A stretch of 64,000 nt of DNA from an uncultured Latescibacterota bacterium (GCA_958295785.1 OY282377.1:198394-262393); one strand, 5' to 3'; positions 901-60,508 are shown, counted from the stretch's first letter. Notes: generated by a model not told the origin, from the letters alone. A program made the numbers and translations.

Positions 901-939
901 AACATCCTCCATAAGAGACTGGATTTGTGGAACGGACAC

Positions 940-1824
940 CTATTGCCCCACTTGATCGGCCGCGTGGTAGGAACTGCGGACCAAAGGGCCGGATTCGACG
1001 TGTCGAAACCCCTGCGCGAGCGCGAATTGTTTTAGATCGGCAAATTCATCGGGATGGTAAAAGCGCGCCACAGGCACATGCCGGGCCGAGGGTTGCAAGT
1101 ATTGGCCCACCGTGAGAATATCGGCCTCGCTATCTGCGATGTCTCGAATTGTCTGGCGCACTTCTGCGAGCGTTTCACCCGCGCCGACCATCATGCCCGA
1201 TTTGGTGGGCATGTGGGGGGCGAGGTCTTTCGCCCGTTGCAACAGGGCTAGCGACCGGGCGTATTTGGCCTGGGGGCGCATGATTTTGTACAGACGGGGC
1301 ACGGTTTCGACATTGTGATTTAGGATGTCGGGCAGCGCGTTCACCACCTCGAAGAGGGCCTGCCAATTGCCCTGAAAATCCGGGATCAAAACCTCGACCC
1401 GCGCGTGTGGGCGCAACCGCCGAATCGCCGCGATGGTTTCGGCAAAAATCTCCGCGCCCCCGTCGGGCAGTTCGTCGCGATTGACCGATGTCACCACAGC
1501 GTGCCGCAAGCCCATCGCTTGCACGGCTTTGGCAACGCGCTCGGGTTCTTCCCGGTCGAGACCTTCGGGACGCCCGGTTTTCACCGCGCAAAACCCGCAA
1601 CGCCGCGTACACACGTCGCCCAAAATCATAAACGTCGCGGTGCCCGAGTTCCAACATTCGCCGATATTGGGACAGCGCGCACTTTCGCAAACCGTGTGGA
1701 GGCTCAAGCCGCGCATCAAGTCTTTCAGCGCGCGGTATTTCGCGCTGCCGGGCGCGGGCACGCGAAACCAGTTGGGCAATCGCCCGCGGCGCGGCGCGGC
1801 GTGAATGTCCATCAACCCGCGCAT
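940..1824 (-). CDS. lipA: lipoyl synthase (radical SAM)
   Basis: 294-aa ORF with [13 protein letters not shown] and TRRCGFCAV cysteine motifs typical of LipA. Confidence 0.95.
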
Positions 1825-3182
1825 GGCACCCTCCGTCCGAAGAGCGTTCTCAAAGTCGTGCGGGCAATCTCGACCTGCACGAGCGCGTGGTCCGCAACGC
1901 CCTCGCGGGGAAATACGACCGTCTTGAAGCCATCGGATTTGCCCGCGGCCAACCCCTCGCCCTTGCGCGCATCCCCTTGCACCAACACCTCGAGGGTGCG
2001 CCCGACATAAGTCGCGTTTATTTTTTCGGAGATGCAGTTCTGTTGGGCGATCACCGCTTCGAGGCGGCGCCCCTTTTCCTCTTCTGAAACCGTGTCCGGC
2101 ATTTCGCGGAACGCGACCGTGCCTTTGCGCGCGGAATACTTAAACATAAATGCAGAATCGTAACGCACCTGCGCCATCAGCGACAAGGTGGCCTCGAAAT
2201 CGCTTTGCGTTTCCCCGGGAAAACCGGCGATGATATCCGTGCTCAAACACAGATCCGGCATGGCGGCGCGCAAATCATCGACCAAGCCGAGATAGTCGTC
2301 GACCGTATAGCTGCGCTGCATCGCTTTGAGAACGCGATTGGACCCGGACTGCACGGGCAAGTGGATGAACCGACAGATTTTCTTTTCACGCGCCATGGTC
2401 TCGATGACCTTTTCAGAAAAATCGCTCGGATGAGGCGACGTAAAGCGGATGCGGTAAATGCCATCTACGCACGCGACCATCGCGAGCAAATCGGCAAAAT
2501 CGCACGCGCCATCGCGGTAGGAATTGACCGTTTGGCCCAGTAAGGTGACTTCTCGAAAACCCGCATCTGCGGCGGCCCGCGCCTGCCTGACAATCTCGCG
2601 TGCTGGCACGCTGCGCTCTCTGCCGCGCACGTAGGGCACGATGCAAAACGTGCAAAACTTATCGCACCCGCGCATAATGGTGATATAGGCATTGCTACTG
2701 GCTTTGCGGATGGGATCGACGCCCGCATAAAATTCGCCGCGATCCAAGCGCACGTCCAACGCCGCGTCGCCGCGCGCTTCGGCGATGAGGTCGGGCAATT
2801 TGCGGTACGAATCCGGGCCGACGACCAAATCGACGTATGGCGCGTCTTTCATCAGGGATTCGGAAACGTGCTTGGCCATACACCCGGATACGCCCATAAT
2901 CAGGTCTGGCCGCCGATACTTGAGCGCGCGCAACTGCCCCAACCGGCCCCGCACGCGCTCCTCGGCGTGTTCGCGAATCGCGCAGGTATTGAGCACCACG
3001 ACATCGGCATCCTCGGGCCGCTGTGCAGACGCATAACCCGCGTCCTGCAAAATGCCCAGCATCAGTTCCGTGTCCGAGACATTCATCTGGCAACCGTAGG
3101 TTTCAATAAAAACCCGTTGCCCCTGCACGGGGGTGACGGGGATCTCGGGTTGCACACCTTCAATATCGAGCAACGCGCTCAC
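1812..3182 (-). CDS. miaB: tRNA methylthiotransferase MiaB (radical SAM)
   Basis: [17 protein letters not shown]-terminal motif, [11 protein letters not shown] radical-SAM CxxxCxxC, and a TRAM-like C-terminus. Overlaps lipA by 13 nt. Confidence 0.9.
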
Positions 3183-3184
3183 GT

Positions 3185-4312
3185 TTATTTTCCTCGCTGA
3201 TTTATGGCTTCAAGTGCCAAACGCATTTCTTTGATGGCCTCTGCATCGCGTTCGCAGTGCAGGGCCTCGTCTAGAACTTGTTGCGCCTGATCGCCGCCAA
3301 TTTTGCCCAAGGCCCACGCCGCGTGTTGGCGCACGAGCGGTTCGTCGTCTTTGAGGGCATCTGACAATGCGGGCACCTCGGATTGACCGCCCACATTGCC
3401 CAAAGCAATGGCGACATTTCGCAACAAGCCGCGTCGCTTGGCGCGTTTGATCGGGCTGTTTTTGAACCGCTTGGAAAAAGCCGCCTGATCCATGTGCAGC
3501 AAATCGACAAGGCCGGGCGCGTTCAACCCCGGGCGCGCTTGAAACGCATCTTCGGAAGTCGGCTCCGCGTGCTTGTGATTCCACGGGCAAACTTCTTGGC
3601 AAATGTCGCATCCAAAAACCCAGTTGCCCACATCCGATCTCAACGCGCGCGGCACCGCGCCTTTTAATTCAATGGTCAAATAGGAAATACACCGCCGCGA
3701 ATCCACGCGATAGGGTTCTACAATGGCGTCTGTTGGACACGCATCCAAGCACTGCGTACAAGTGCCGCAGTGATCCGGCTGCGGTTGATCGCACTCGAGC
3801 TCGAGATTCAAAATAATTTCGCCTAAAAAAAACCACGATCCCCGGCCTTTGTCGATCAAGCAAGTGTGTTTTCCAAACCAACCCAGCCCGGCGCGTGCGG
3901 CAAAATCGCGCTCCAAAACAGGGCCGGTATCCACGTAAACCCGGCCTTCGGCAGAAGGCTCAATGCGCTGAATTTCGGCCAGCAATTCAAACAGGCGATC
4001 CTCCATCACCGCGTGGTAATCATCGCCGCGAGCATAGCGCGCAATCTGCCCTTTGGGATGACTGCCATTTTCAGACGCATCGCTATCGGGCAGATAATTG
4101 AGGCCCGCGCACAGCACGGATTTTGCGTTTGGAACAATTTGTCGAACATCTGACCGCCGATCCAAATTGCGCCCCAAATACCCCATTTCTCCCGCGTAAC
4201 CCATCCCCAACCACTTTTGATAAAACGCCCAGTGTTGCGGGGGATCTGCCGATGCAATGCCCACGGGATTGAACCCCAAACGCCGCGCCGCGGCTTTAAT
4301 CTGATCGGTCAT
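3185..4312 (-). CDS. queG: epoxyqueuosine reductase QueG (4Fe-4S, C-terminal HEAT-like repeats)
   Basis: CGTCTQCLDACP and CDICQEVCPWN ferredoxin-type motifs; C-terminal VRQHAAWALGKIGG HEAT-like repeat. I place the start at internal ATG 4312 (MTDQIKAAARRLGFNPVGI). The 18 upstream codons of the tracked ORF (to 4366) fall in an interspersed repeat copy. Confidence 0.85.
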   Translation of the reverse strand: MTDQIKAAARRLGFNPVGIASADPPQHWAFYQKWLGMGYAGEMGYLGRNLDRRSDVRQIVPNAKSVLCAGLNYLPDSDASENGSHPKGQIARYARGDDYHAVMEDRLFELLAEIQRIEPSAEGRVYVDTGPVLERDFAARAGLGWFGKHTCLIDKGRGSWFFLGEIILNLELECDQPQPDHCGTCTQCLDACPTDAIVEPYRVDSRRCISYLTIELKGAVPRALRSDVGNWVFGCDICQEVCPWNHKHAEPTSEDAFQARPGLNAPGLVDLLHMDQAAFSKRFKNSPIKRAKRRGLLRNVAIALGNVGGQSEVPALSDALKDDEPLVRQHAAWALGKIGGDQAQQVLDEALHCERDAEAIKEMRLALEAINQRGK

Positions 4313-4324
4313 GCGGGCATTCCA

Positions 4325-4379
4325 ATCCGGACTTTCCAGAGACTGATTTTTCGCGCCAGATACCACCGCAATACACGAC
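4325..4379. repeat. interspersed intergenic repeat, copy A (partial)
   Basis: tccggactttccagagactgatttttcgcgccagataccaccgcaatacacgac aligns by eye with 44265-44318. Its core (tgatttttcgcgccagat) also matches 41899-41926. Confidence 0.6.
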
Positions 4380-4409
4380 TGACATATTTTTTTTCCTTAT
4401 ATCGAGAGA

Positions 4410-4587
4410 TCAAAAATCTCTATTCTTGTACTGGTGTAGCCTTTCAACTGCTTCACGAGGGGTGATGATCGGAATGCCTTCGACGTGGCCGAGGGCCAGC
4501 ATGTCCTTTTTGTCTCCAGAAACGATCAGGTCCGCTCCGCGCGATCAGCGCGCTCACGAGCCCATTGGTGTCAAGAACGATTCGCAC
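4410..4587 (-). pseudogene. PIN-domain toxin remnant (internal deletion plus frameshift)
   Basis: GTG at 4587 gives VRIVLDTNGLVSALIARSG, a PIN N-terminal motif. The frame then breaks, and a frame offset by 1 nt gives LIVSGDKKDMLALGHVEGIPIITPREAVERLHQYKNRDF* ending at 4410. That totals about 59 codons versus roughly 130-140 for intact PIN toxins. The start overlaps the upstream RHH gene end by 17 nt. Confidence 0.7.
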
Positions 4588-4807
4588 GGACGTGGGCCAC
4601 GGCTTCATCGGCGAGGGTCTGGGCATCCTCATCCGAAAGGTGTTTGTTCCGATCCCAGACCATTTCGACAGTCTCCCAGAAGATCGCTTGGCGGACCGCA
4701 CGGTCAACAAAACGGGACAGGTTGTCTTTCTTGCCGCCAGTCCGGGCCAGATAACTCCGAACCGTGCGGTCAGTGTCTTTTGATATGACGATGTTCCATT
4801 GCGTCAT
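4571..4807 (-). CDS. ribbon-helix-helix (CopG-like) antitoxin-type protein
   Basis: 78-aa ORF MTQWNIVISKDTDRTVRSYLARTGGKKDNLSRFVDRAVRQAIFWE... It is small, sits immediately upstream of and overlaps the PIN remnant, which is the typical type II TA layout. Confidence 0.6.
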   Translation of the reverse strand: MTQWNIVISKDTDRTVRSYLARTGGKKDNLSRFVDRAVRQAIFWETVEMVWDRNKHLSDEDAQTLADEAVAHVRANRS

Positions 4808-4956
4808 GAATAGCCTCTGATGACAATGTTTGTCGTTGATTTGAATTTATGCGTCCACAGTCTCTCCGCACGGTGTTAAATCCAAGAGCGTCAAGACAAT
4901 AATCATCTTCGCCTCGGTTTCGGGTTCTGAGCGTCTTTCATATAGATTCTCTCCTT

Positions 4957-4994
4957 TCCAAAAATAAAGGGCAGGACGCAACAATGCCCTGCCC
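4957..4994 (-). terminator. rho-independent terminator after the IscU-like gene
   Basis: 7-bp GC-rich stem GGGCAGG (4969-4975) / CCTGCCC (4988-4994) with a 12-nt loop. On the minus strand it is followed by TTTATTTTTGG. Confidence 0.6.
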
Positions 4995-5002
4995 CGCGGT
5001 TT

Positions 5003-5368
5003 TCAGGTCTGATTGCCGAGCGCCGTGCGAACCGCATCGACCGCTAAATCGGCGGCGTGTTTCCGCGTGGGGGGCAAGCCGCCGAGCGCGGCCTCGATAT
5101 CGGCGCGTGCGATTTTGCCGGCCTCACTGGGCGTTTTGCCCGCCACCCATTCCGTGAGCACAGAACCCGAAGCAATGGTCGCCGCGCATCCCTGCGCCTG
5201 GAAAACCGCTTGATCGATGATGCCGTCTTTGAACGCGAGATGCAGGGACAGGGTGGCGCCCGAAGCGGGATTTTCCGCAAAGCCCATCGCGTCGGGCGCG
5301 TGCAATGTGCCGACATTTCTGGGATGCTCAAAGTGATCCCGCAAAATCGTGGAATAAGCGTCAGCCAT
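5003..5368 (-). CDS. IscU/NifU-N-like protein lacking two of the three cluster-ligand cysteines
   Basis: From ATG 5368: MADAYSTILRDHFEHPRNVG...ENPASGATLSL...QGCAATIASGSVLTEWVAGKT...PPTRKHAADLA. This aligns by eye to E. coli IscU (APACGD / GCGSAIASSS / IHCS). The longer tracked ORF (to 5482) overlaps the rny 3' end. Confidence 0.75.
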   Translation of the reverse strand: MADAYSTILRDHFEHPRNVGTLHAPDAMGFAENPASGATLSLHLAFKDGIIDQAVFQAQGCAATIASGSVLTEWVAGKTPSEAGKIARADIEAALGGLPPTRKHAADLAVDAVRTALGNQT

Positions 5369-5372
5369 GGGA

Positions 5373-7040
5373 TTACGCGCTGGCCTGTGCAGACGTTCTC
5401 GCTCGGTAATCGCGGCGGCGACCATAGCGTTTTTGGGGGGGCGGCTTGCGTTTGCCGGGGCGGCCGGCCAAATTCGAGGCACTGATTTTTCGAATCAGCG
5501 TGACCTGAACCTCGCCCGGGTAGGTCATTTCCTCGCGGACGCGCTCGGCAATTTCATAAGACAGGTCTTTGGCCTGTTCGTCGTTCACTTGCGCGGCATT
5601 GACCAACACGCGCACTTCGCGGCCCGCATTGATGGCATAAGCGTCTCGCACCCCGTCGAAAGATTGCGCGATCTCCTCCAAACCGCGCATCCGCTTGATA
5701 TACGCTTCCGGGTCGTCTCGCCGAGCGCCGGGTCGGGAGGAAGAAATCGCATCGGCCGCTTTGACCAAAAACGAAAGCGGGGTCTCTGCCTCTGCCTCGC
5801 CGTGGTGATAAAAAATTCCGTTGATCACTTCCGGGCCTTCGCCGTATTTGCCGGCCAGATGCGCGCCAATATCCGTGTGCTTGCCCTCGAGTTCCTGATC
5901 CACGGCTTTGCCGATATCGTGCAACAGCCCACAGCGGCGCGCGAGTTTTTCATCCATGTTCAATTCCGCGGCCATTGTGCCGGCCAGAAAAGCCACTTCT
6001 TTGGAATGCCCCAGCACATTTTGTCCAAAGCTCGTGCGGTATTTGAGCTTCCCCACCAGTTTGACCAGTTTGGGATGCAATTCGTCAATGCCCAATTCGC
6101 GCACGGCCCGATGGCCTTCTTCGGCGATGATTGAGTGGGTCTTTTTTTCGCAATTTGCAACAACGGTTTCAATGCGGCTCGGGCTGATGTGGCCCTCGCG
6201 CACCAATTGCTCCATTGCCAGACGCGCCACATCGCGCTTGACCGGATCAAAGCTGGACAAAACAACCGCCTCGGGCGTGTCGTTGACGATCACTTTCACC
6301 CCCGTCGCGGCTTCAAACGCAATGATATTGCGCCCCTCTTTGCCGACAATCCACGCCTTAATATTGTCATTGGGCAATGTGACGACCGATAGGGACGACT
6401 GCACGGTTTGATCCGTGGAACAGCGTTCGATGGCCTGCGCCAGAATTTTTTTGGCTTCGCGGTCGGCTCGTTCGCGGGCGTGGTCGATCATTTCCCGGCC
6501 GATATTTATGGATGTCTGACGCAGCGAATTTCGAATGTCTTTGAGCAACATCTCGCGGGCATGTTCGACATTCATGCCCGAAATGAGCTCTAATTGCGCC
6601 CGTTGCTGATCGATCAAATCGGCCAGTTCCAATTCTCGCTTCTCCAGACGGACGGCTTTTTGCGCGCCCTCTTGTTCCCGCCGCGTCAGGGTTTTTTCGC
6701 GCTGGCTTACAACTTCGGCCCGCTTGACCAGGCTGGTTTCCCTTTCGTGCAGTTCATCGTTTTGACGATCAAACTCGCGCCGTTTTTGATCAAAAGCCTT
6801 TTCAATTTCAGCCTTCTCGTCATACCACTTGTTTTTGATTTCCAAAAAAGTGGCCTTGCGATTTCGATCTTCTTTTTCCGCGAGTTTGATCGCGTGTTTT
6901 TCAGCCTGCTGCTCAATTTCTCGCACCTTTCGCGCTCTGATTCGGGCGCCCAAAAGCCACCCGATTCCAAACAGGGCAATGGCAACCGCCAGAAAGATCC
7001 CATAAGTTGCCATTGGAGCTCCCAGCAATAACGCATCCAT
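5373..7040 (-). CDS. rny: ribonuclease Y
   Basis: N-terminal TM helix, long charged coiled-coil, KH-like segment and HD domain (LLHDIGKA), about 520-555 aa. The start could be ATG 7040 or the nearby MATYGIF. Confidence 0.9.
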   Translation of the reverse strand: MDALLLGAPMATYGIFLAVAIALFGIGWLLGARIRARKVREIEQQAEKHAIKLAEKEDRNRKATFLEIKNKWYDEKAEIEKAFDQKRREFDRQNDELHERETSLVKRAEVVSQREKTLTRREQEGAQKAVRLEKRELELADLIDQQRAQLELISGMNVEHAREMLLKDIRNSLRQTSINIGREMIDHARERADREAKKILAQAIERCSTDQTVQSSLSVVTLPNDNIKAWIVGKEGRNIIAFEAATGVKVIVNDTPEAVVLSSFDPVKRDVARLAMEQLVREGHISPSRIETVVANCEKKTHSIIAEEGHRAVRELGIDELHPKLVKLVGKLKYRTSFGQNVLGHSKEVAFLAGTMAAELNMDEKLARRCGLLHDIGKAVDQELEGKHTDIGAHLAGKYGEGPEVINGIFYHHGEAEAETPLSFLVKAADAISSSRPGARRDDPEAYIKRMRGLEEIAQSFDGVRDAYAINAGREVRVLVNAAQVNDEQAKDLSYEIAERVREEMTYPGEVQVTLIRKISASNLAGRPGKRKPPPQKRYGRRRDYRARTSAQASA

Positions 7041-7263
7041 TGGAGCCTCCTATCAAATTTCAAATCCAATCTTCGATCCATAGCGCGGATATGTTTGACG
7101 GGCCATGCCGAGATGCCCAAAAAAAACTTCCGAACAGACCGCGCCGAGCACAACAGAAAAACAATAGACATCATGGGTTTTCGTCCTTTGGGAACGCATT
7201 TAAGCCCAAAAGAGAGGGACCGCAATACGACCCCTCCCTTATGGCTGTTCGACAAAGCGATGA

Positions 7264-7590
7264 TTAAACGCTGAAAGATTCCCCACAACCACACTGATTT
7301 TTGGCATTGGGATTGTTAAACCGAAACCCCGTGCCCATCAGGCCATCGTCGTAATCCAATTCGGTGTCCGTCAAAAAAAGCGCGCTTTTCATATCGACAA
7401 AGACCCGAATGCCGTGGGCTTTGACAACGCTGTCGTCTTCGCGGACGGCCCCGTCGAAATCGAGTTGATATTGCAGGCCAGAACACCCGCCGCCAATCAC
7501 TTTCAAGCGCAAGCCGTGATCTGCGGGGCGTCCTTCTCTGTGCATGAGTTCTTTGATTTTGCCCGCAGCAATTTCCGTGACGCGAACCAT
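7264..7590 (-). CDS. HesB/IscA-family iron-sulfur cluster insertion protein
   Basis: MVRVTEIAAGKIKEL...GGGCSGLQYQL...NQCGCGESFSV. GGAGG lies upstream of ATG 7590. The tracked ORF extends further into the peroxiredoxin gene. Confidence 0.85.
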   Translation of the reverse strand: MVRVTEIAAGKIKELMHREGRPADHGLRLKVIGGGCSGLQYQLDFDGAVREDDSVVKAHGIRVFVDMKSALFLTDTELDYDDGLMGTGFRFNNPNAKNQCGCGESFSV

Positions 7591-7600
7591 AATACCTCCA

Positions 7601-8080
7601 TTAATCCAATGCTTTGAGACGCGCTTTGATCGCGTCAAAATCGGGCAGAACGGTGGGGTCGTCAGACACGGATGCAAAGCGCACTGTGCCGGTTTTGTCG
7701 ATCACAAAAGCCGAACGCTTTGCCACGCCTCGCAATCCGATCAACTCCTCAAATTGCGCCCCATAAGCCGCGCTGACCTCTTTGTTGAAATCGCTGAGCA
7801 AGGGAATGGCAATGCCTTTTTCCCTCGCCCAGGCCGCTTGGGCAAAGGGACTATCCACGCTGATGCCCAACACCTGCGCGTCGAGCGCGTCATAATCGGT
7901 CAACCCGCCGCTGACCGAACACATTTCATCGGTGCAGACGTCGGTATAAGCCAGCGGAAAAAACAAAATCACGACGTTTTTCCGCCCCTTGTAATCGGTC
8001 AGAGAAATCTCTTTCAAATCGTCGCCAGACTTCGATTTCAGCGTAAAGTCGGGGGCTTGATCGCCTACAGTAATGCCCAT
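7601..8080 (-). CDS. peroxiredoxin (AhpC/TSA family)
   Basis: MGITVGDQAPDFTLKS...FFPLAYTDVCTDEMC peroxidatic-Cys motif. Confidence 0.85.
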   Translation of the reverse strand: MGITVGDQAPDFTLKSKSGDDLKEISLTDYKGRKNVVILFFPLAYTDVCTDEMCSVSGGLTDYDALDAQVLGISVDSPFAQAAWAREKGIAIPLLSDFNKEVSAAYGAQFEELIGLRGVAKRSAFVIDKTGTVRFASVSDDPTVLPDFDAIKARLKALD

Positions 8081-8102
8081 TGTTCGCTTCCTTTGGAAAA
8101 AT

Positions 8103-8714
8103 TCACCGCGCAGCTTCGTAGCGGCGATTCACTTCGTCCCAGTTAATGGTATTCATCCATGCCGCGATATAATCGGGGCGCAAGTTTTGATATTTGAGAT
8201 AATAGGCGTGCTCCCACACATCGAGGCCGAGAATGGGCGTTCCGTCGCCCGTCATGAGCGGGTTGTCTTGATTGGCCGTACTCAAAATATCGAGCTTGCC
8301 ATCTCGCACCACGCACCAGGCCCACCCACTGCCAAAGCGCGTGGTTGCAGCCGTCGCAAATTTTTCATAAGCGGCTTCCCTGCTGCCAAAAGAGGACACA
8401 ATGGCTTCGGCGATTGCGCCCGTGGGCTCGGCCCCGCCATTGGGACTCATAATGGTCCAGAACAAACTGTGGTTGGCGTGGCCGCCGCCATTGTTTTGAA
8501 CCGCCGTGCGGATGTCTTCGGGCACGCTGTCCAAATTGCCGATCAGGCTTTCGATAGACTGATTCGCCAACGCGTCGTGCCCTTCAAGCGCGGCATTGAG
8601 ATTGGTCACATAGGCATTGTGGTGCTTGGAATGGTGAATTTCCATCGTCCGCGCGTCGATATAGGGCTCGAGCGCGTCGTAAGCATAAGGCAGGTCGGGC
8701 AATTGATATGCCAT
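8103..8714 (-). CDS. Fe/Mn superoxide dismutase
   Basis: [36 protein letters not shown]...[12 protein letters not shown]. Confidence 0.95.
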
Positions 8715-11329: not shown

Positions 11330-11869
11330 TTAGCTGTTTGTCAAGTCGGCGAGAGAGACTGTGGTGCCCACAATTGTTGCGATTTTTATTTTCCTGTACT
11401 GTTCTAAAGAAATGCGGCTCGGCCCAATTTTCACGCGCTGTTTATCGAGTCTCTCGTTCCGCTTTTCTGCGATGATAATATACGTCAGTCGCGTGCGCGC
11501 AATAGAACGCTCGCTTTCAATTTCACAGACGGAAAGGAGATACGCCAAAAAAGGACGCGATCTCCGCAGTTGTTCTTTCGGCCTCTCCTCTTGTGTGAGC
11601 GTCTTTTTCAGTTCGATAAAAACAGCGTGAATGATGCCGTTGCGTTGAACGATCAACAAGTAGTCGCATTGTTGCTTGCGCGGGCCATCCTTTAGAACGG
11701 ATAGGTGGCTAAACTTGCCCAAACGTATCGCGGTAACAGGCTCGGGGCAATGGATCACTTGAACCGCCATCTTTGCTTGGCGTTCTCGCAGGATGATACC
11801 ATCGCTTCCCTCGGCCTTCTCCAGCGCGTTTTCCTTCAGTATATCTTCCAATGTCTCATTCAAAGACAT
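11330..11869 (-). CDS. small PD-(D/E)xK (restriction-endonuclease-fold)-like protein, partner of upstream ATPase
   Basis: ATG 11869 preceded by GGAGG with a 6-nt spacer (MSLNETLEDIL...). The motif QQCDYLLIVQRNGIIHAVFIELKK gives D-x15-E-x-K. The start overlaps the ATPase 3' end (stop 11856-58). Confidence 0.6.
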   Translation of the reverse strand: MSLNETLEDILKENALEKAEGSDGIILRERQAKMAVQVIHCPEPVTAIRLGKFSHLSVLKDGPRKQQCDYLLIVQRNGIIHAVFIELKKTLTQEERPKEQLRRSRPFLAYLLSVCEIESERSIARTRLTYIIIAEKRNERLDKQRVKIGPSRISLEQYRKIKIATIVGTTVSLADLTNS

Positions 11870-13283
11870 GCCCATCCTCCGCTGCCAATCGCGCTGCGAG
11901 TTCATTTGATACGCGGTTAATTTTGTCGATGGTCTCGTCGAAGACCGGCATATCAATGCCGAACCCATCCACGGCGCACCGGCTCAATCCATTTCCTTCC
12001 GCGACGTACGCTCGGATCGAATCTGGATTGAGGAAATCATCCACTTTGTATCCGAGTTTCTCGACGACCTTCGCTTTGTTATCAAAGGATCGGCTCAACA
12101 TGACGAGGTTGTTGATCTCCTTGATGAGATAGTCGCTGTGCGTGGTGATCAAAATTTTCAAACCCGCCCGCACGAGTCTCGCCAGCAAGCGCGCCAACTG
12201 GATTTGGTTGGTCGTATCGAGATGGCTCTCTGGCTCGTCAATGATGAGGAGATGATTCTTCTGCGCGACGTGGCGCAAGAAGAAGTACAAGTCAGACAAG
12301 CCGCGCACTGAAGAGGACGCGGTGTGCAACGGGATGTGAAATCTGCGTTTGCCGCGTGCTTTTGAAATAAATTCGGTATCGTCGCCAGACCTTCGATAAT
12401 AGCCATCCATCATATTCTTGATGTCGTTGAACAACTTGTCTTCGTAAATCTCGCTTTTTCGCCTGAGAAAATCGGATATGTTTCTGGTGTAGTCGATATT
12501 GTCTTTTACGGGAAGGGCGTAGCGACTGGTCGTTTCGTCTATCAAGCGAAACGGAGAAAAGCGGTCCCGGTCTTTGTCGTCTCCCATTTTTTGCAATAAA
12601 TTGACCAGTTGGTTCTTGGTGAAGTCGAGTTCTTTGTAGAACAGCGAGATCCCAAACCGCTCGGCGGAAAGGACGAGCGGATGCGGAAAATCTGGGGATA
12701 GGAGCGATGCGTACAGTCTATAAACTATAGACTGTATTTTCCCATAGTTGATCAGATATTGGGAGGGGGGTTTGTCCACAGAGACGTCGTATCTCGGGAG
12801 AGGGTCTCGTTCTATGACGATATCGCTTCCGTCATAAGCGATTGAAAAATGGCCCTGTTTTCGGGATTGCACATCCGCGGGAAACGCATCGTTGAGTACC
12901 ATTTCAAGGGACGCGCCTTCGAAAGCGGCTTGTGAAGCACTGAACACGTCCGGCAAAATTTGTTTAGAAAAGATCTTCGTCACCCTTTGAAGCATTGCTT
13001 GTCGCGCCTGTTTGAGCCCGTTCCGATCCACGGGTTGCTTTGCCTTGCCCGTTGCCATGAGCGTTTTGACGAGGTGATCGACGTTGGGGGGGATTGAAGT
13101 TGCCAGTTCTCTCCAGATTTTCAAGAAGCCATAGAGCGCGTAGGCCAAATACGTTTTGCCGGTGTTGTTGCGGCCAGCAATTATCGTGAGATCGCCCAGT
13201 TCCATTTCGGCCTCTTTTATGGGGCCGATTTTTTTCAACCGAAATATCGCGGATTGCATGCTGTCTTTCCCATTTGTGAACAT
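11856..13283 (-). CDS. ABC/SMC-like (AAA_15/AAA_21, OLD-type) ATPase
   Basis: Walker A GRNNTGKT, Walker B LLIIDEPESHLD, H-loop-like ITTHSDYLI, and a long insert between A and B. The start is ATG 13283 or ATG 13259 (MQSAIFRLKKIGPI). Confidence 0.8.
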   Translation of the reverse strand: MFTNGKDSMQSAIFRLKKIGPIKEAEMELGDLTIIAGRNNTGKTYLAYALYGFLKIWRELATSIPPNVDHLVKTLMATGKAKQPVDRNGLKQARQAMLQRVTKIFSKQILPDVFSASQAAFEGASLEMVLNDAFPADVQSRKQGHFSIAYDGSDIVIERDPLPRYDVSVDKPPSQYLINYGKIQSIVYRLYASLLSPDFPHPLVLSAERFGISLFYKELDFTKNQLVNLLQKMGDDKDRDRFSPFRLIDETTSRYALPVKDNIDYTRNISDFLRRKSEIYEDKLFNDIKNMMDGYYRRSGDDTEFISKARGKRRFHIPLHTASSSVRGLSDLYFFLRHVAQKNHLLIIDEPESHLDTTNQIQLARLLARLVRAGLKILITTHSDYLIKEINNLVMLSRSFDNKAKVVEKLGYKVDDFLNPDSIRAYVAEGNGLSRCAVDGFGIDMPVFDETIDKINRVSNELAARLAAEDGHVFE

Positions 13284-54060: not shown

Positions 54061-54879
54061 CTATTCCTCCACCACTCGCGGACGCTTAAATTCTTTTTTG
54101 AAAAGCGAATCGACTGTGGCTTGAAGGGTCATCAGTGTTTGCTGATGGTTGTCAGCGCGTCGCGCGAGGCGTTTGGCTGTTTCGGCGATTTGGAGCGCGT
54201 TTTTGGCATTGTCTTGTGCGCGTTTGAAATCGTTTCTCAGCGTTGCGAGTTGTCGATTTTGGGTATCCAGCCGCTCGTTGGCGCGGTCGAGATTTTGTCG
54301 GGTATTTCGCAATATTTCGCGGCTTTTGGCATGCTGTTTTTTCTCGTCCGCGAGTTGTTTTTGGGTGGATGCGCGAAGCGATCTCTCGGTGTGGAGGCTG
54401 TCCCGATAAGCGAGGCGCGCCTGCGTTTCCCGCTTGAGTTCGCCTTGGGTGAGGCGCAATGCCTCGCGTGTAGAGTCGCGCTCTTGCCGCGTGCGCCGAT
54501 GGTGGGCGATCTCGTTGGACAACTTGCCGCGCACCTCCACTTCCGATCCGGTCAGGACGGCTTTTTCATTGATTTGCGACATGAGACGGTCGGTTTGTTC
54601 GCCGAGGCGTGTGCGAAAAGCCGCGAGTTCTTGCTGGAATCGCGCTTGCGTGTTTTCAAGCGTTTGCCCTTGGCGCGTGAGGGAGGTTTGCAAGACCAAG
54701 ATCAGAAAGATGGTGACCGTGACCGATGCGTAGCCCAAAAAGCCGTAGAGCCACCGGGCTTCGATGCGAAAAAAGGATTTGTCTTCCGTTTTGACGCGCT
54801 CTGAAACGTGAAATACAATGTACACACCCACGCCGATCAGAATGAGCGCGCCGAGTGTGGAGAGGATGATAATTTTCAT
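54061..54879 (-). CDS. membrane-anchored coiled-coil protein (2 TM + about 190-aa R/Q/E-rich coiled coil)
   Basis: MKIIILSTLGALILIGVGVYIVF and WLYGFLGYASVTVTIFLILVLQT helices, followed by heptad-like RQ/E/L-rich sequence. Lies 38 nt downstream of the PIN-like gene. Confidence 0.55.
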   Translation of the reverse strand: MKIIILSTLGALILIGVGVYIVFHVSERVKTEDKSFFRIEARWLYGFLGYASVTVTIFLILVLQTSLTRQGQTLENTQARFQQELAAFRTRLGEQTDRLMSQINEKAVLTGSEVEVRGKLSNEIAHHRRTRQERDSTREALRLTQGELKRETQARLAYRDSLHTERSLRASTQKQLADEKKQHAKSREILRNTRQNLDRANERLDTQNRQLATLRNDFKRAQDNAKNALQIAETAKRLARRADNHQQTLMTLQATVDSLFKKEFKRPRVVEE

Positions 54880-54917
54880 AACGATCTCGGGATTAGGGGT
54901 CAGGGGCACGTAGTCAA

Positions 54918-55364
54918 TTAAGGACAAGTATCTCTGGTCAGTAGGTGTTTGTGCCTCGCGCTTTGATATACTTTGCCGCCGACCAGATTGCGGTTCTTAA
55001 AATCCCGGTGCAATTTGCGGTCGGCCCCTCTTTGGGTTATTGGGTTATAGCCGACGATAAGTACTTTCGCGTTTGCGACCATAGCCAATGCAATAATGTG
55101 CTCGTCATCTGATTCTATTCGTCCTTTGAGTTCATCCGCTTTTTGTTGCACATCTTGGGCGGAAACCAATTTGAGTTTACCGGCTTGACTCAGTTCCGTC
55201 ATTCGAGCTTTCATTCCGCCTCTTTCCCATTCTTCTCTAAATTTATTGGTATCTGAGTAAACGATTTTCCCGGATCTTCTGAGCCAGTCCCGCACGGGCT
55301 GCATCTCCTCATTGCTCAAATTCTTAAAGTTACCAAAACAATTGGCATCTAAAATAACGCACAT
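54918..55364 (-). CDS. PIN-like domain protein
   Basis: MCVILDANCF... (first acidic residue) and ESDDEHIIALAMVANAKVLIVG (acidic cluster plus helix-strand), about 148 aa. The ATG lies 2 nt after the ATPase stop. Confidence 0.55.
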   Translation of the reverse strand: MCVILDANCFGNFKNLSNEEMQPVRDWLRRSGKIVYSDTNKFREEWERGGMKARMTELSQAGKLKLVSAQDVQQKADELKGRIESDDEHIIALAMVANAKVLIVGYNPITQRGADRKLHRDFKNRNLVGGKVYQSARHKHLLTRDTCP

Positions 55365-55366
55365 AA

Positions 55367-56671
55367 TCAATCCTCAAAACCCAGTAGTCGGTCAGATTCT
55401 TGCAAAAAAAATGATCTGTAATGCGGCGGGACATTGAGCATATTTGCCATTTTGTCGAAGCGGATATTGTGGACATGGACGACGCGCCCCTTGGGTTCCA
55501 GATAGATCAGCGACACATCTTTGGGGCTGATCGTGCCTCGTCTGATTTCAATGCGCGCGCGGTCGATCAGATAGTCGCTATGCGTTTCAACGATGAACAA
55601 TTGTTTCCCCCGGCTCGCCAATTCAGCGAGTAAAGAAGACAGTTGCGCCTGCGCCTTGGGGTGCAGATAGACTTCGGGCTGTTGCAATAAGAAGGTCGTT
55701 CTCGCGTCTCTATAGATATGCGGACGAGAAATATCGGCGTCCAAGATCTGCACCAAGATCGGCAGTATTTGACTGACGCCGTAGCCCACGTCAATGATAT
55801 TGGCATTGGGGCCTCGCACCTTGACTTTCAGTTGGAAGGGGTCGCCCATAGACCCGCTCAGGTTTTTAATTTCTATGTTCTCAAATAATCCCGAACGCCT
55901 GCCAAATTCGACCAACTTTTGTTTCAAGCCTTCCCATCGCTCTTTTTTTGTCGCTTGCGTCCGCATCAACCGCATCGGCACATCGCTTCCTTCGGGGTCG
56001 TTAAACTCTCGAGTCGGATCATAAGTCCGCTTGGGGCGCGAGCGAATCGGCGAGGTGCTAAATGCGGATATGGCAGACATCATTCCCAGGTCGTTTTTGT
56101 CCATATCCTTTTTTTTTAGATATTTCTCTAAAGCATGTTTGCCTTTGCCTTTCAGCATACGCATCCAAATATGAATAAAGAAGGGTGAAAAGCGAAAAAA
56201 GGGCGGAAAGCCATCACTCATTTCTATGTGGTATTGGTTTTTTGTTGCATCAAAGTCGGTGAGACGCACGCCATCTTTCCCCGTCTCTCCGCGTTTGAAA
56301 ACGATCTCTCCATCTGTGAATTTGAGTGTCATGAACTTGATGGCGGGTTCAAATCCATCCCTCTTTTGGACAAACGCAACGGTATATTCGACATCTTCAG
56401 AATCGCCTTCAAAAGTAAATCCCAGCTTAAAGGCTTTTTCTTTTTTTCGGCTGTTTCTGACGATATCCCGAAAAATGCCCATTGAATAGGGTTGCGTATT
56501 AAAATCTATTTCCCCGCGGTTCAAATAATCTGCCAACACTTGAAAACACGCCAGCATGGTCGTCTTGCCCGTGCTGTTTTCCCCGACCAAAAACGTCAGG
56601 GGGCGAATGTCGAATTGCTGGCGTTCGGCAAAACAGCGCACCTCTTCCATTGTAAATTGGGTGATGTTCAT
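55367..56671 (-). CDS. ABC/SMC-like (AAA_15/AAA_21-type) ATPase
   Basis: From ATG 56671: MNITQFTMEEVRCFAERQQFDIRPLTFLVGENSTGKTT (Walker A)...FLLQQPEVYLHP (Walker B-like)...VETHSDYLI. The ATG overlaps the sulfatase stop (ATGA). The longer tracked ORF (to 57019) is an Arg-rich overlap with the sulfatase. Confidence 0.8.
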   Translation of the reverse strand: MNITQFTMEEVRCFAERQQFDIRPLTFLVGENSTGKTTMLACFQVLADYLNRGEIDFNTQPYSMGIFRDIVRNSRKKEKAFKLGFTFEGDSEDVEYTVAFVQKRDGFEPAIKFMTLKFTDGEIVFKRGETGKDGVRLTDFDATKNQYHIEMSDGFPPFFRFSPFFIHIWMRMLKGKGKHALEKYLKKKDMDKNDLGMMSAISAFSTSPIRSRPKRTYDPTREFNDPEGSDVPMRLMRTQATKKERWEGLKQKLVEFGRRSGLFENIEIKNLSGSMGDPFQLKVKVRGPNANIIDVGYGVSQILPILVQILDADISRPHIYRDARTTFLLQQPEVYLHPKAQAQLSSLLAELASRGKQLFIVETHSDYLIDRARIEIRRGTISPKDVSLIYLEPKGRVVHVHNIRFDKMANMLNVPPHYRSFFLQESDRLLGFED

Positions 56672-58266
56672 TTCGCCGCCTCCAAATAGTAGGGATGGAC
56701 TTTGACCCGCACGGCCCACGCGAGCCATTCGCGCTCGAGTTCTCGTGCCAATTCGGGATGTTCCGCCGAGAGATCGTTGGTCTCGCAGCGATCTGCGTCC
56801 ATATCGTAAAGTGCCCAATCCCGGGTGGGATACCGGGCATTGCCCCGCAGCAATTTCCATCGCCCCCTGCGGATGGCACTGGCGTCGAAGTGATCGAAAC
56901 ACAGGCTGCGCTCGGGCAGGTCGCGGGCATTGAACACGGGTGCGAGGCTCATCCCCTCTTGCGGGTGAATGCGTTCCCCGTTGCGCGTTTCCGGATATTC
57001 GGCATCGGCGATTTCGCACAGGGTCGGCATGAGGTCAAACAGGTGCATGGGCGTGCGAACCCAGCGGTCGGGTTGCGCGATCCCTTCGGGCCAATGGGCG
57101 ATGAATGGGCTGCAATTGCCGCCTTCATGGTTGTAGTGTTTGTACATCCGCAACGGCGTGTTGCTCAGGCATGACCACGCGCTGCCCACCGAGTGATACG
57201 TGCCCGGCCCGCCGATCTTTTTGAGGTCTTCGCCCGTGTGGAGATGCGTGATTCCCGACCTGCTTTGCACGTCAAATCCAAAAGGGCCCCATTCGTAACA
57301 GGCGCCATTGTCGCTCGTGAACACAATGAGCGTGTTGTCCAATTCGCCCGTTTTTTTTACCAAATCGATGATTCTGCCAACGCCGCGGTCGATATGCTCG
57401 ACCATCGCGGCAAAGACCGCCATGCGATAGGCGAGATCCTCCCGGCGATCAGAAGGCAGATCGGCCCATGCGGGATTCTGCTTGCCGCCATACCCATTTG
57501 CTATCGCGTCGTTTTCTTCTCTGGGCACGAGAGAACGCGCCGTGAATTGCCAGTTCTCGGTTGCCAAACCAGATGCATGCTGGCGTTCATAGCGTTCTCG
57601 GCGCAACACATCCCAACCGCGGCGGTAGATATCGAGATACGAATCCCGGGTTTCCGCGGGTGCGTGTAGGGGAAAATGCGGCGCCGAGTGGGCCAGGTAG
57701 AGGAACCACGGCGCGTCTTTGCGCTGTGCCTGATCGATAAATGCGATGGCGTAATCGCTGAATGCGTCTGTGGCATAAAACGCATCGGGCGAAAACGAGC
57801 GTTCTGGCGGTTGGGATTCGGGATAGCGATGGTAGCGATCCCGCTCCCACTGCGGCGCGCTGTGCCCTTTGATGAACCCGTAATAAGCGTCAAATCCCCG
57901 GTCGATGGGGTCGAGGTGATCGCCGACGTGCCATTTGCCAACGCCATAAGTGTTGTAGCCCGCGGTTTTGAGGACTTCGGCCAATGTGACGCAGTTGTCG
58001 TTCAACCGCCCCAAATACGCGGGGCCCAACTCGGCGGTTCGGTCATTGCCCGTGAAATTGGCGATGCCCGCCTGATGGGAATACAGGCCCGTAAGTAGCG
58101 AAGCCCGCGAAGGACAACAGCGGGCCGAGTTGTAACTCTGCGTGAATCGCAGGCCATGAGCCGCCAAGCGATCCAGATTGGGCGTTCGGATTTCACCGCC
58201 ATAAGCCCCCAGATCGGAATAGCCCATGTCATCCACGAGAATCGCGATGATGTTGGGTTTTTTCAT
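56668..58266 (-). CDS. Cys-type arylsulfatase
   Basis: NIIAILVDDMGYSDLGAYGG...ARCCPSRASLLTG. Confidence 0.9.
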   Translation of the reverse strand: MKKPNIIAILVDDMGYSDLGAYGGEIRTPNLDRLAAHGLRFTQSYNSARCCPSRASLLTGLYSHQAGIANFTGNDRTAELGPAYLGRLNDNCVTLAEVLKTAGYNTYGVGKWHVGDHLDPIDRGFDAYYGFIKGHSAPQWERDRYHRYPESQPPERSFSPDAFYATDAFSDYAIAFIDQAQRKDAPWFLYLAHSAPHFPLHAPAETRDSYLDIYRRGWDVLRRERYERQHASGLATENWQFTARSLVPREENDAIANGYGGKQNPAWADLPSDRREDLAYRMAVFAAMVEHIDRGVGRIIDLVKKTGELDNTLIVFTSDNGACYEWGPFGFDVQSRSGITHLHTGEDLKKIGGPGTYHSVGSAWSCLSNTPLRMYKHYNHEGGNCSPFIAHWPEGIAQPDRWVRTPMHLFDLMPTLCEIADAEYPETRNGERIHPQEGMSLAPVFNARDLPERSLCFDHFDASAIRRGRWKLLRGNARYPTRDWALYDMDADRCETNDLSAEHPELARELEREWLAWAVRVKVHPYYLEAAK

Positions 58267-58273
58267 GTTTCAC

Positions 58274-59233
58274 TCAATTGACGCGGCGTTCTCGTTTGGG
58301 ATAGCCGAGGGATTTATCCACTTCGTTGAAGAGCGGCTCGCCGGCCAAATAGCGTTTGAGATTCTCACAGAAAAACGCCACGGTTCGGTTGTGCCGATTG
58401 GGCGACGCGCCCGCGGCGTGCGGGGTGATGATGGCGTTTTCCATGTCCCACAACGGGCTGTCGGGCGAGAGTGGTTCGCGTTCAAACACGTCTAGGCCCG
58501 CACCGGCGATTTCACCGGATTTGAGGGCTTGGGCCAAAGCGGCTTCATCGACGATGGGCCCGCGCGCGGTGTTGACCAAAAACGCGGTGTTTTTCATCAG
58601 CCCCAAGGTGCGGGCGTCGATGAGTTTTTCGGTCTCGGGCGTGTAGGGCACGGCGATGAACACGACATCGGCGAGTTGCAACCCCTCGTCCAAGCGATCC
58701 ATGCCCCAGATCGCTTCCACGTAATCGGGCTTGTCGCCGCCCTGAATATCCAGCGCGATCAGACGCGCTTCATAGCCCTGCGCGAGTTGGGCGTAGTATT
58801 GGCCGATGCCCCCAAACCCGACGATGAGGATGGTCGCCCCCAACAAATCCGCGAGTGGCGGGCGCTTCCAGGCGTGATCGCGCTGGTGGTGCAGGGAAAC
58901 GTGAAGCCCGCGCGTGAGGGCCGTGGTGAGTGCCCAGGCGTGTTCGGCAACCTGCACGGCGTGCACGCCGCTGGCATTGCACAGGACGATGTCGCTGTCG
59001 GCCACTTCCGGGATCAGGGCTTTGTCCATGCCCGCGCTCGTGGATTGAATCCACTTGAGGTTGGGCGCGGCGCGCACGATTTCGGACGTAAACACGCCAA
59101 AGATGATTTCGGCATCGGCAACGGCTTCGATGGCATTGCGATCATCAACCATCACGACTTCGGCGTCGGGCGCGGTGTCTCGAACCTGTTGGCAAAGTGC
59201 TTCATCAACCGAGGGGTGCAAAACAATTTTCAT
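58274..59233 (-). CDS. D-isomer-specific 2-hydroxyacid dehydrogenase (NAD-binding)
   Basis: GFGGIGQYYAQLA, NTARGPIVDEAAL, and ITPHAAG. Confidence 0.85.
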   Translation of the reverse strand: MKIVLHPSVDEALCQQVRDTAPDAEVVMVDDRNAIEAVADAEIIFGVFTSEIVRAAPNLKWIQSTSAGMDKALIPEVADSDIVLCNASGVHAVQVAEHAWALTTALTRGLHVSLHHQRDHAWKRPPLADLLGATILIVGFGGIGQYYAQLAQGYEARLIALDIQGGDKPDYVEAIWGMDRLDEGLQLADVVFIAVPYTPETEKLIDARTLGLMKNTAFLVNTARGPIVDEAALAQALKSGEIAGAGLDVFEREPLSPDSPLWDMENAIITPHAAGASPNRHNRTVAFFCENLKRYLAGEPLFNEVDKSLGYPKRERRVN

Positions 59234-59452: not shown

Positions 59453-60508
59453 TTACGCAATCACCATTGGAATATGAGGTGCTTTGAGTTGTTGTCTCAA
59501 GAAGTCAGCCAGCCCCCGGTATTTGACTTGATAAATGGTTTGTCCTGTTTGATAGGCCACCTGCGCGAGTCGAATCCAAACTAACATCGCACACCCAATA
59601 TGATTTCGTACCATGCGTGCCAACCGGCATTGACACTTTTCAAGCCCGGTCACCTGTTTGACTTCGCGGTGAAATGGCTCAATTTTCCATCTTTGGTGAC
59701 ACACCTGTTGTACCCCTGAAGAATCGTTTTGAGCATGGTCGTTAGTCACGACATACGCCGTGCGTCTGGCAGCAGACGCCCCCCGGAATAATTTCACTTT
59801 GTGGTCTTTGGGGAACCCTCTGATTTTAATTGACTTGCCTTGTTTGCGTTGCGCTTTCGTCCAAGTTAAGCTATCTACGCGCTGGTAGGGGATTGTGCCT
59901 GCCTCATAGTCCACGCGCCGGTTCGTCTTGAGGGGACAATAATAGGTTTTTTGCATCTGCTCTATGTGTCGCATGACCGTTTTAGTCGCATACCCACTGT
60001 CCATCAAGACCCCGGTAAAAGGAAGGCGCTTCTGATAGACCAACGCAGAGAGCATGTCCTTGAGATGATCCAATTTGGTTTTGCCATCGCCTTGCGGGTC
60101 ATAAATCCGATAGTCAATCAACCAGAACCGATCCTCTTGCGGATTGACATAGACACATGTGACCACCCCGATGCCGTTGATGACGCCTTGGGCGTTGCCG
60201 CTATATTGACGGCGCACTAACGCGATCTTGCGTGCGTGTCGCTTGTCTAAAACCGTGTCATCAAAGATCACATAGCCTTTGGGCGTCAACGCGATGTGGT
60301 CTTTGACGTGTTCCCACACCAAGCGGGGAGGGATACGATCACCGGCGAGATAGCGGTTGATCATATCATGACTGAACCCTTCGCTATGGTCGGCGAAATG
60401 GGTCAGGGTATCGTTGAGGGGACTGCTAAGCAGATACTGACAGTCATCCAAACGCGTCGGTCGGTCCATTGACACCTCCTCAAAGTGATAAATTTTACGG
60501 AATTGCAC
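59453..60508 (-). CDS. IS701/IS4-like DDE transposase
   Basis: VIFDDTVLDKRHARKIALVRRQYSGNAQGVINGIGVV, VLMDSGYA, and RWKIEPFHREVKQVTGLEKCQCR. The start is possibly the internal MDRPTRL. Confidence 0.8.
   Translation of the reverse strand: MQFRKIYHFEEVSMDRPTRLDDCQYLLSSPLNDTLTHFADHSEGFSHDMINRYLAGDRIPPRLVWEHVKDHIALTPKGYVIFDDTVLDKRHARKIALVRRQYSGNAQGVINGIGVVTCVYVNPQEDRFWLIDYRIYDPQGDGKTKLDHLKDMLSALVYQKRLPFTGVLMDSGYATKTVMRHIEQMQKTYYCPLKTNRRVDYEAGTIPYQRVDSLTWTKAQRKQGKSIKIRGFPKDHKVKLFRGASAARRTAYVVTNDHAQNDSSGVQQVCHQRWKIEPFHREVKQVTGLEKCQCRLARMVRNHIGCAMLVWIRLAQVAYQTGQTIYQVKYRGLADFLRQQLKAPHIPMVIA

Follow-up and report, generated by a model that had tools for sequence, protein, structure and literature searches.

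Closest described systems and the locus

Pairs of an ABC ATPase and a nuclease are a major building plan of bacterial immunity, represented by PARIS, Septu, Gabija, Menshen and HEC-01 to HEC-04. HEC-03 of Pseudomonas cichorii consists of a DUF3696 ABC ATPase and a VapC-like PIN protein (WP_025259138.1 and WP_025259137.1). Defence against phage depends on both genes, and induction of the system has a toxic effect (Payne et al., bioRxiv 10.1101/2024.01.29.577857). Menshen consists of NsnA, NsnB and NsnC. NsnC proteins begin with a PIN-like domain, and in AlphaFold3 models a dimer of the NsnB C-terminal domain clamps that domain (PMC12065111). The locus described here lies in a 64,000-nucleotide stretch of DNA (the window) from an uncultured Latescibacterota bacterium (GCA_958295785.1 OY282377.1:198394-262393). 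It encodes an ABC-type ATPase followed by a stand-alone PIN-domain protein. The pair is best described as lying between HEC-03 and Menshen and as a family distinct from HEC-03, Menshen and PDC-M55. It is probably an immunity module of two genes that moves horizontally and acts by abortive infection. The pair is compact, with a length of 1.75 kb, and has the following features.

55367-56671, minus strand: ABC-type ATPase, 434 residues, of an NsnB/DUF3696-like clade (Pfam, PADLOC and motifs)
54918-55364, minus strand: stand-alone PIN-domain protein, 148 residues, predicted nuclease effector (AlphaFold2, Foldseek and the Pfam matches of relatives)
55365-55375, minus strand: ATPase-PIN junction, with GAGGA at 55371-55375, the ATPase stop codon TGA at 55367-55369, a 2-nucleotide spacer and then the PIN ATG

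The pair and HEC-03 share a two-gene layout in the same order, an ABC ATPase and then a VapC-like PIN protein of about 150 residues. The ATPases are homologous (BLASTP, 26% identity over 185 residues in the C-terminal half, E = 2e-15) and have the GxGxSQ, xQPExxLHP and E(S/T)HS(D/E) motifs in common. Both pairs can be found within methyltransferase-containing defence operons. In both, the two genes abut or overlap: the HEC-03 genes overlap, and the genes here are separated by a 2-nucleotide spacer, with equivalent spacing in 81 loci. The PADLOC model for the HEC-03 PIN protein (HEC-03A) recovers true HEC-03 PIN proteins at 9e-86 and 9e-28 but misses the window PIN protein and 46 of its 47 relatives. 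The HEC-03 ATPase is of the DUF3696 type, whereas Pfam DUF3696 gives no match in the window ATPase, even when the C-terminal 75 residues are scanned alone at E <= 10. The Walker B region reads EQPE in HEC-03 and QQPE here. HEC-03 occurs on chromosomes and plasmids of Pseudomonas, Azotobacter and Aeromonas, whereas the present family occurs in Poribacteria, Latescibacterota, Caldilineaceae and the gammaproteobacterium AqS3.

Genuine HEC-03 pairs are present on Azotobacter and Aeromonas plasmids (L083 3998-6616, PIN model 9.2e-28; L084 3368-5996). They are followed directly there by a gene annotated as an 'RNA ligase family protein', whose product might assist an RNA-cleaving effector in repair or immunity.

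Menshen resembles the pair in its NsnB-type ABC ATPase and in a downstream partner with a PIN fold, which in NsnC is the N-terminal domain. In NsnC, the PIN-like domain is fused to a BECR, Toprim or PLD effector, whereas here the PIN domain stands alone in 148 residues. All 35 inPIN families of Menshen are without catalytic acidic residues, which the present PIN protein keeps. The NsnB Walker B is reported as EN, compared with QQ here. A Menshen-like ATPase next to a stand-alone, apparently catalytic PIN protein would fit a descent of the Menshen 'inactive PIN' adaptor from an active PIN effector of the same ATPase.

PDC-M55, an untested PADLOC candidate (FAM_00005>>FAM_02935>>FAM_00004), is a three-gene cassette of which only the A (ATPase) model is matched here. 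The PDC-M55B and PDC-M55C models are matched neither by the window PIN protein nor by its relatives. PARIS (AriA/AriB), Septu and retron PtuA/PtuB, and Gabija GajA have an ATPase of the same structural clade controlling a nuclease, but their effectors are Toprim or HNH proteins and the sequences are similar in the core of the ATPase only. VapBC type II toxin-antitoxin systems share the effector fold and the VapC-type acidic active site. They contain the small DNA-binding antitoxin VapB, whereas the upstream gene here encodes a 434-residue ABC ATPase in every locus. The combination of an ABC ATPase with a PIN protein is of a known kind, validated elsewhere, while the present family is unnamed and large (1519 clusters at 50% identity).

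Conservation of the ATPase-PIN pair

A scan of one genome per species finds 212 relatives of the PIN protein. Poribacteria account for 59 of the best 80 among these 212, Latescibacterota for 11, Caldilineaceae for 8 and Owenweeksia for 1, and 1 is unclassified. In all 81 loci taken from the genome collection, the PIN gene is directly preceded by a gene for an ATPase homologue, with ATPase identities of 52-81%. The distance from the end of the ATPase alignment to the PIN start is 4-7 nucleotides, stop codon included, in nearly all of the 81 loci. Four more distant members (PIN identity 30-38%, ATPase identity 39-42%) all have the same ATPase-then-PIN arrangement. Pairwise identities of the ATPase and PIN proteins correlate across loci (r = 0.56, Mantel p = 0.001). 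Translation of the two genes is coupled, and they are co-inherited across phyla.

The exceptions to this spacing are decayed copies (L041, L018, and L046 with a 197-nucleotide gap). In L041 (3429-5997), an insertion with a DDE_3 transposase interrupts the ATPase gene. In L018 (5722-5994), only the last 90 or so ATPase codons are left, upstream of an intact PIN gene.

Clustering of open reading frames (ORFs) recovers no conserved third gene in the 81 loci, and no other gene is present in more than 29 of them. By sequence inspection, the recurrent neighbours resemble lineage-specific housekeeping genes.

The family alignments start exactly at the ATG codons given here, with MC... in the PIN protein and MNITQF... 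in the ATPase, which settles the start codons against longer ORFs that begin with GTG or TTG. In the window, the PIN gene starts with ATG TGC, 2 nucleotides past the ATPase stop. An earlier note, made from the sequence of the window, had reported an ATPase at 55367-56671 with GENSTGKT, FLLQQPEVYLHP and ETHSDYLI, and a 148-residue protein with ILDANCF and ESDDEHIIALA 2 nucleotides after it. Both genes are reproduced as reported.

The PIN protein

The AlphaFold2 model of the small protein has a predicted local distance difference test score (pLDDT) of 90.5 and a predicted template modelling score of 0.86. The top Foldseek matches in the PDB are PIN/VapC proteins (PAE0151, VapC and VapBC PIN domains; 2fe1, 5ecd, 3zvk, 6ifc and 1y82). 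These matches have probabilities of 0.95-0.99, with modest TM-scores of 0.42-0.59 and E-values of only about 1e-2. Pfam PIN (PF01850) is matched by 42 of 47 distant relatives, at best with 3.9e-11, and close relatives have sub-threshold matches to DUF4411, PIN_9 and PIN. The Pfam PIN membership of the window protein rests on transitive homology, because its relatives match PF01850 and it does not. Two profiles of the family (A1 and A2) give only chance matches to PDB sequences. The PIN call of the earlier note is upheld by both structure prediction and profiles.

Conserved residues are read from two alignments, one at 54-74% and one at 33-57% identity. D6, D87, D115 and D121 do not vary among the 47 sequences at 33-57% identity, and at least 90% of these sequences have E45. 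By the succession of strands and helices in the model, the acidic residues lie where a PIN domain carries them (the end of beta1, the helices after beta2 and beta3, and after beta4). Taken together, the model, the matches of relatives and the alignments identify the small protein as a PIN domain whose acidic site is intact. In each of the two alignments, at least 90% of the sequences have His89, and His138 is invariant among close relatives only. Cys2 and Cys147 are also invariant; the family begins with Met-Cys and ends in Cys, usually followed by Pro. A disulfide or metal site that links both termini through Cys2 and Cys147 is possible.

An exhaustive profile search returns 1519 representatives of PIN-family clusters. 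Among the matches listed, these representatives are stand-alone proteins of about 140 residues matched over their full length, except for shorter, evidently truncated entries. Compared with the closest relative, the PIN protein changes fastest in its neighbourhood (70% identity), followed by the ATPase (80%), the sulfatase (87%) and the dehydrogenase (94%).

The ATPase

The ATPase has Pfam matches above cut-off to AAA_21 (6e-21) and AAA_15 (2e-19). Its best PADLOC match is NsnB (1.6e-40), with residues 3-417 aligned to profile positions 2-330 of 345. PDC-M55A is matched over the full length (1.9e-35). The ATPase model of HEC-03 (HEC-03B, 2.6e-20) is matched by residues 241-417 only, which corresponds to the C-terminal half. 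Weaker PADLOC matches are to AriA (4e-22), Old, GajA and PtuA. The structural model resembles the heads of retron/Septu PtuA, Rad50, GajA, SMC and OLD proteins, with E-values of 1e-10 to 1e-6. The ATPase is of the ABC type and belongs to a Rad50/SMC/OLD-like, defence-associated clade.

The Walker A motif (GENSTGKT), the signature (GYGVSQ), a Walker-B-like motif (LLQQPEVYLHP) and the H-loop (ETHSDY) are invariant in 77 homologues. In the Walker B (FLLQQPE; residues 326-331, 55679-55696), Gln-Gln is present instead of the canonical Asp-Glu. LLQQPE is invariant across the family, including the members with 39-42% ATPase identity. The compact pair could serve for the study of nuclease gating by an ATPase clade with a non-canonical Walker B.

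Genomic context and transfer

Five loci (L009, L029, L044, L056 and L064) have genes for a type I methyltransferase (PADLOC MTase_I 2.7e-296) and for a specificity subunit ahead of the pair. The methyltransferase there is composed of N6_Mtase and HSDR_N_2, and in L009 the arrangement spans 813-8209. In L009, L044 and L064, the pair abuts the specificity subunit with a 4-nucleotide overlap. In L009, L029 and L056, a mad3-like SMC_N ATPase is located after the pair. The pair in these loci is embedded in an operon that resembles restriction-modification (R-M) and MADS systems.

In Gammaproteobacteria bacterium AqS3 (L085 3598-8671), one of the four distant members, the pair is followed by a second ATPase (AAA_15/AAA_21), a protein with a helix-turn-helix and Peptidase_M78, and a DUF4411 (PIN-like) protein. 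This neighbourhood is a small defence island. AqS3 lives in symbiosis with the sponge Amphimedon queenslandica. The family appears to be concentrated in lineages that are known as sponge symbionts, a habitat link drawn in part from record titles.

Median ATPase identity between Latescibacterota and Poribacteria is 62%, compared with 64-69% within each. The nearest relatives of the Latescibacterota copy L063 and the Owenweeksia copy L064 are Poribacteria copies. Transfer of the pair between phyla is indicated, because identity between phyla is close to that within phyla and because these two copies are nearest to Poribacteria.

The two genes do not always diverge together. In Caldilineaceae, L057 and L077 have ATPases with 86% identity and PIN proteins with 49%. 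Over L057/L077 and L032/L067, the ATPases are 82-86% identical and the PIN proteins 49-54%. This divergence suggests that the PIN effector may be replaced, or may diversify rapidly, independently of the ATPase.

On plasmids, the matches to the ATPase belong to HEC-03-type systems or to others with DUF3696, with 21-26% identity. The partners of the DUF3696 ATPases on Bacillus and Azotobacter plasmids give no significant match to the PIN profile.

Neighbouring genes and base composition

The minus-strand order over 54.0-59.3 kb is dehydrogenase, sulfatase, ATPase, 148-residue protein, 272-residue protein and an RND efflux pair. The features around the pair are as follows.

58274-59233, minus strand: 2-hydroxyacid dehydrogenase (ORF)
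56668-58266, minus strand: sulfatase (Pfam Sulfatase 1.7e-58)
56679-56683, minus strand: GGAGG, Shine-Dalgarno-like, 8 nucleotides 5' of the ATPase ATG and within the sulfatase 3' end (consensus match only)
56668-56671, minus strand: ATGA, the overlap of sulfatase stop and ATPase start (read from the sequence)
54061-54879, minus strand: TM-CC protein, with two transmembrane (TM) segments and a coiled coil (CC), 272 residues (ORF)

The ATG of the ATPase gene shares nucleotides with the TGA of the sulfatase gene (AAATGAAC), as had been noted earlier. An abutting or overlapping sulfatase-ATPase junction is also present in Latescibacterota loci L004-L010, L025 and L046, and a sulfatase neighbour is found in Latescibacterota only. 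Within this phylum, the dehydrogenase and sulfatase genes are conserved as the left flank of the pair, and the right flank varies by subclade. The window, L001 and L002 have the TM-CC gene and the RND pump on the right, and other Latescibacterota loci (L003-L010) have unrelated genes there. The pair is located at a synteny breakpoint, because the right flank differs between Latescibacterota subclades.

The guanine-plus-cytosine (G+C) fraction in sliding windows is 0.445-0.515 over 54800-56600, compared with 0.56-0.64 in the flanks and a mean of 0.564 for the window. By gene, it is 0.477 in the ATPase and 0.452 in the PIN gene, compared with 0.587 in the sulfatase, 0.606 in the dehydrogenase and 0.618 in the MFP gene. 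The pair as a whole has 47% G+C, compared with 59-62% in its flanks, and ranks within the lowest 1.6% when set against all stretches of its own length in the 64-kb sequence. Of 78 loci, 77 have a lower G+C in the pair than in its flanks (median -6.9 points). The sole exception is a low-G+C Owenweeksia genome, in which the pair is higher. The low G+C that had been counted by hand for the cassette thus persists in the sliding-window calculation and in the related loci.

Proposed function and alternative explanations

The pair most plausibly represents a horizontally mobile immunity module that acts by abortive infection. A defence function of the family is suggested by genomic context, with PD-T4-4 in the same window as one part of it, and by the precedent of HEC-03. 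The candidate system proposed in the earlier note, a PIN nuclease guarded by an ATPase, is supported by the structural prediction, the conserved neighbourhood and the low G+C, again with defence argued by analogy. By analogy with HEC-03, Menshen, PARIS and Septu, the ATPase would oligomerise and keep the PIN nuclease inactive via its C-terminal region. It would sense an infection cue, and a nucleotide-dependent conformational change would release or activate the PIN protein. The PIN protein would then cleave RNA, most likely tRNA, rRNA or mRNA, so that translation would be arrested and phage replication aborted. VapC-type PIN proteins cleave RNA, and RNA is favoured over DNA as the substrate for this reason. 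In Latescibacterota, the sulfatase gene would supply only read-through transcription and a coupled start, and the TM-CC gene would be a bystander.

Several observations weigh against a mobile defence module of this kind. No relatives of the PIN family are found in IMG/VR viral contigs or PLSDB plasmids. In Latescibacterota, the pair has long been resident at one chromosomal site, which fits a highly mobile island less well. Because QQ takes the place of the acidic pair in the Walker B, ATP may be hydrolysed slowly or not at all. The ATPase model has moderate quality (pLDDT 64). The window PIN protein has no match in Pfam, in PADLOC (E <= 0.1) or in NCBIfam. The alignment of the HEC-03 PIN protein with the profile of the window PIN protein is local and weak (hhalign probability 38%), and 1 of 47 PIN relatives touches the HEC-03 PIN model (6e-4).

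A wider proposal, which we put forward tentatively, is that the family could be a defence system characteristic of the sponge (and coral) holobiont. It would be exchanged among at least five lineages that share this habitat (Poribacteria, Latescibacterota, Caldilineaceae of the Chloroflexota, the gammaproteobacterium AqS3 and Bacteroidota). The QQ ATPase would perhaps be a nucleotide-binding switch and not a hydrolysing motor, and the PIN protein, with its family-specific Cys2 and Cys147, would be exchangeable independently of the ATPase. Defence inventories of sponge symbionts probably miss the family, because its PIN gene is invisible to PADLOC and NCBIfam models.

It is rather unlikely that the pair is a selfish, toxin-antitoxin-like addiction module without a phage-defence role, in which a PIN toxin and an ATPase antitoxin are kept by post-segregational killing or genome stabilisation. 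A small DNA-binding antitoxin is missing, and a 434-residue ABC ATPase with conserved nucleotide-binding motifs exceeds the needs of a neutraliser. The VapC-like PIN protein, the toxicity of HEC-03 on induction, the stable residence at one Latescibacterota site and the absence from the phage and plasmid collections (IMG/VR and PLSDB) are consistent with addiction. However, copies of the pair lie within R-M/MADS-like operons and within defence islands, and its closest tested relative defends against phage and needs both genes to do so. Addiction and defence are not mutually exclusive.

The best PADLOC match of the ATPase, NsnB at 1.6e-40, and the PIN-like domain with which NsnC proteins begin (PMC12065111) would also fit a degenerate Menshen system, a non-functional remnant in which NsnB persists with an NsnC shorn of its C-terminal nuclease and NsnA is lost. 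This origin is very improbable given the 1519 cluster representatives, which among the matches listed, truncated entries aside, are stand-alone proteins of about 140 residues with full-length matches, and the conserved acidic residues, which are absent from Menshen PIN-like domains. None of the 81 loci has an NsnA (ParB/DUF262) gene next to the pair, and the DGxQR motif occurs in three ORFs only, none of them adjacent. Both genes are intact, with 50-80% identity across phyla, and genuinely decayed copies are limited to L018 and L041.

A housekeeping RNA-processing or regulatory pair that is functionally part of the dehydrogenase-sulfatase operon has similarly little probability. Outside Latescibacterota, about 70 loci of other lineages have unrelated neighbours. 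The pair is missing from 80 of 80 environmental (metagenome) loci with sulfatase homologues, although these loci, at 55-78% sulfatase identity and without the dehydrogenase synteny, are too distant to be true empty sites. The low G+C of the pair relative to the sulfatase and the variable right flank between Latescibacterota subclades also separate it from an operon of this kind. The points in favour are the overlap of the ATPase start with the sulfatase stop, the conservation of the sulfatase junction in 11 Latescibacterota loci, and the minus strand over 59323-54061, in which no promoter-like site is found (the promoter and terminator scan yielded no more sites than shuffled sequence).

The TM-CC gene is reproduced as earlier reported, on the same strand and with its ATG 38 nucleotides beyond the PIN stop. 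The protein has hydrophobic segments at residues 1-29 and 43-68, and then about 200 residues rich in R, L, A, Q and E with one proline. A three-component system, with this protein as membrane sensor or effector, is the least credible explanation, since the gene's position and weak coiled-coil-type matches to JetC/LmuB models (E-value 0.004-0.07) are set against its absence from the remaining 79 loci, among them the close relative L003, its host-like G+C (0.546, outside the dip) and the expectation of such matches from coiled-coil composition alone. The TM-CC gene does not belong to the module, because among the 81 loci it is limited to the two closest genomes (L001 and L002). The protein had been considered either as a third component or as unrelated, and the second option is the one that stands. 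The cassette, first drawn over 54061-56671, should end at 54918, and the module is the ATPase and PIN genes at 54918-56671.

Other features of the window

The window also encodes PD-T4-4, a defence system already described, at 11330-13283 on the minus strand. Its 475-residue ATPase matches PD-T4-4_A (5.9e-110), and the 212-residue partner matches PDC-M47B (2.4e-8) and PD-T4-4_B (8e-6). The G+C of this cassette is about 0.50, under the window mean, and its ATPase has a canonical Walker B (DEPE). The parallel that had been drawn between this cassette and the ATPase-PIN pair applies insofar as both combine an ABC ATPase with a small partner. The term 'effector swapping' is only loosely apt, as the PD-T4-4 ATPase belongs to a different family.

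A low-G+C stretch (0.40-0.52) at 59.2-62.5 kb is located just upstream of the dehydrogenase-sulfatase-ATPase-PIN run. It is opened by a DDE transposase at 59453-60508 on the minus strand (DDE_Tnp_1 3.7e-11, DDE_5 5e-9). The 1.75-kb window with the lowest G+C of the whole sequence begins at about 60451.

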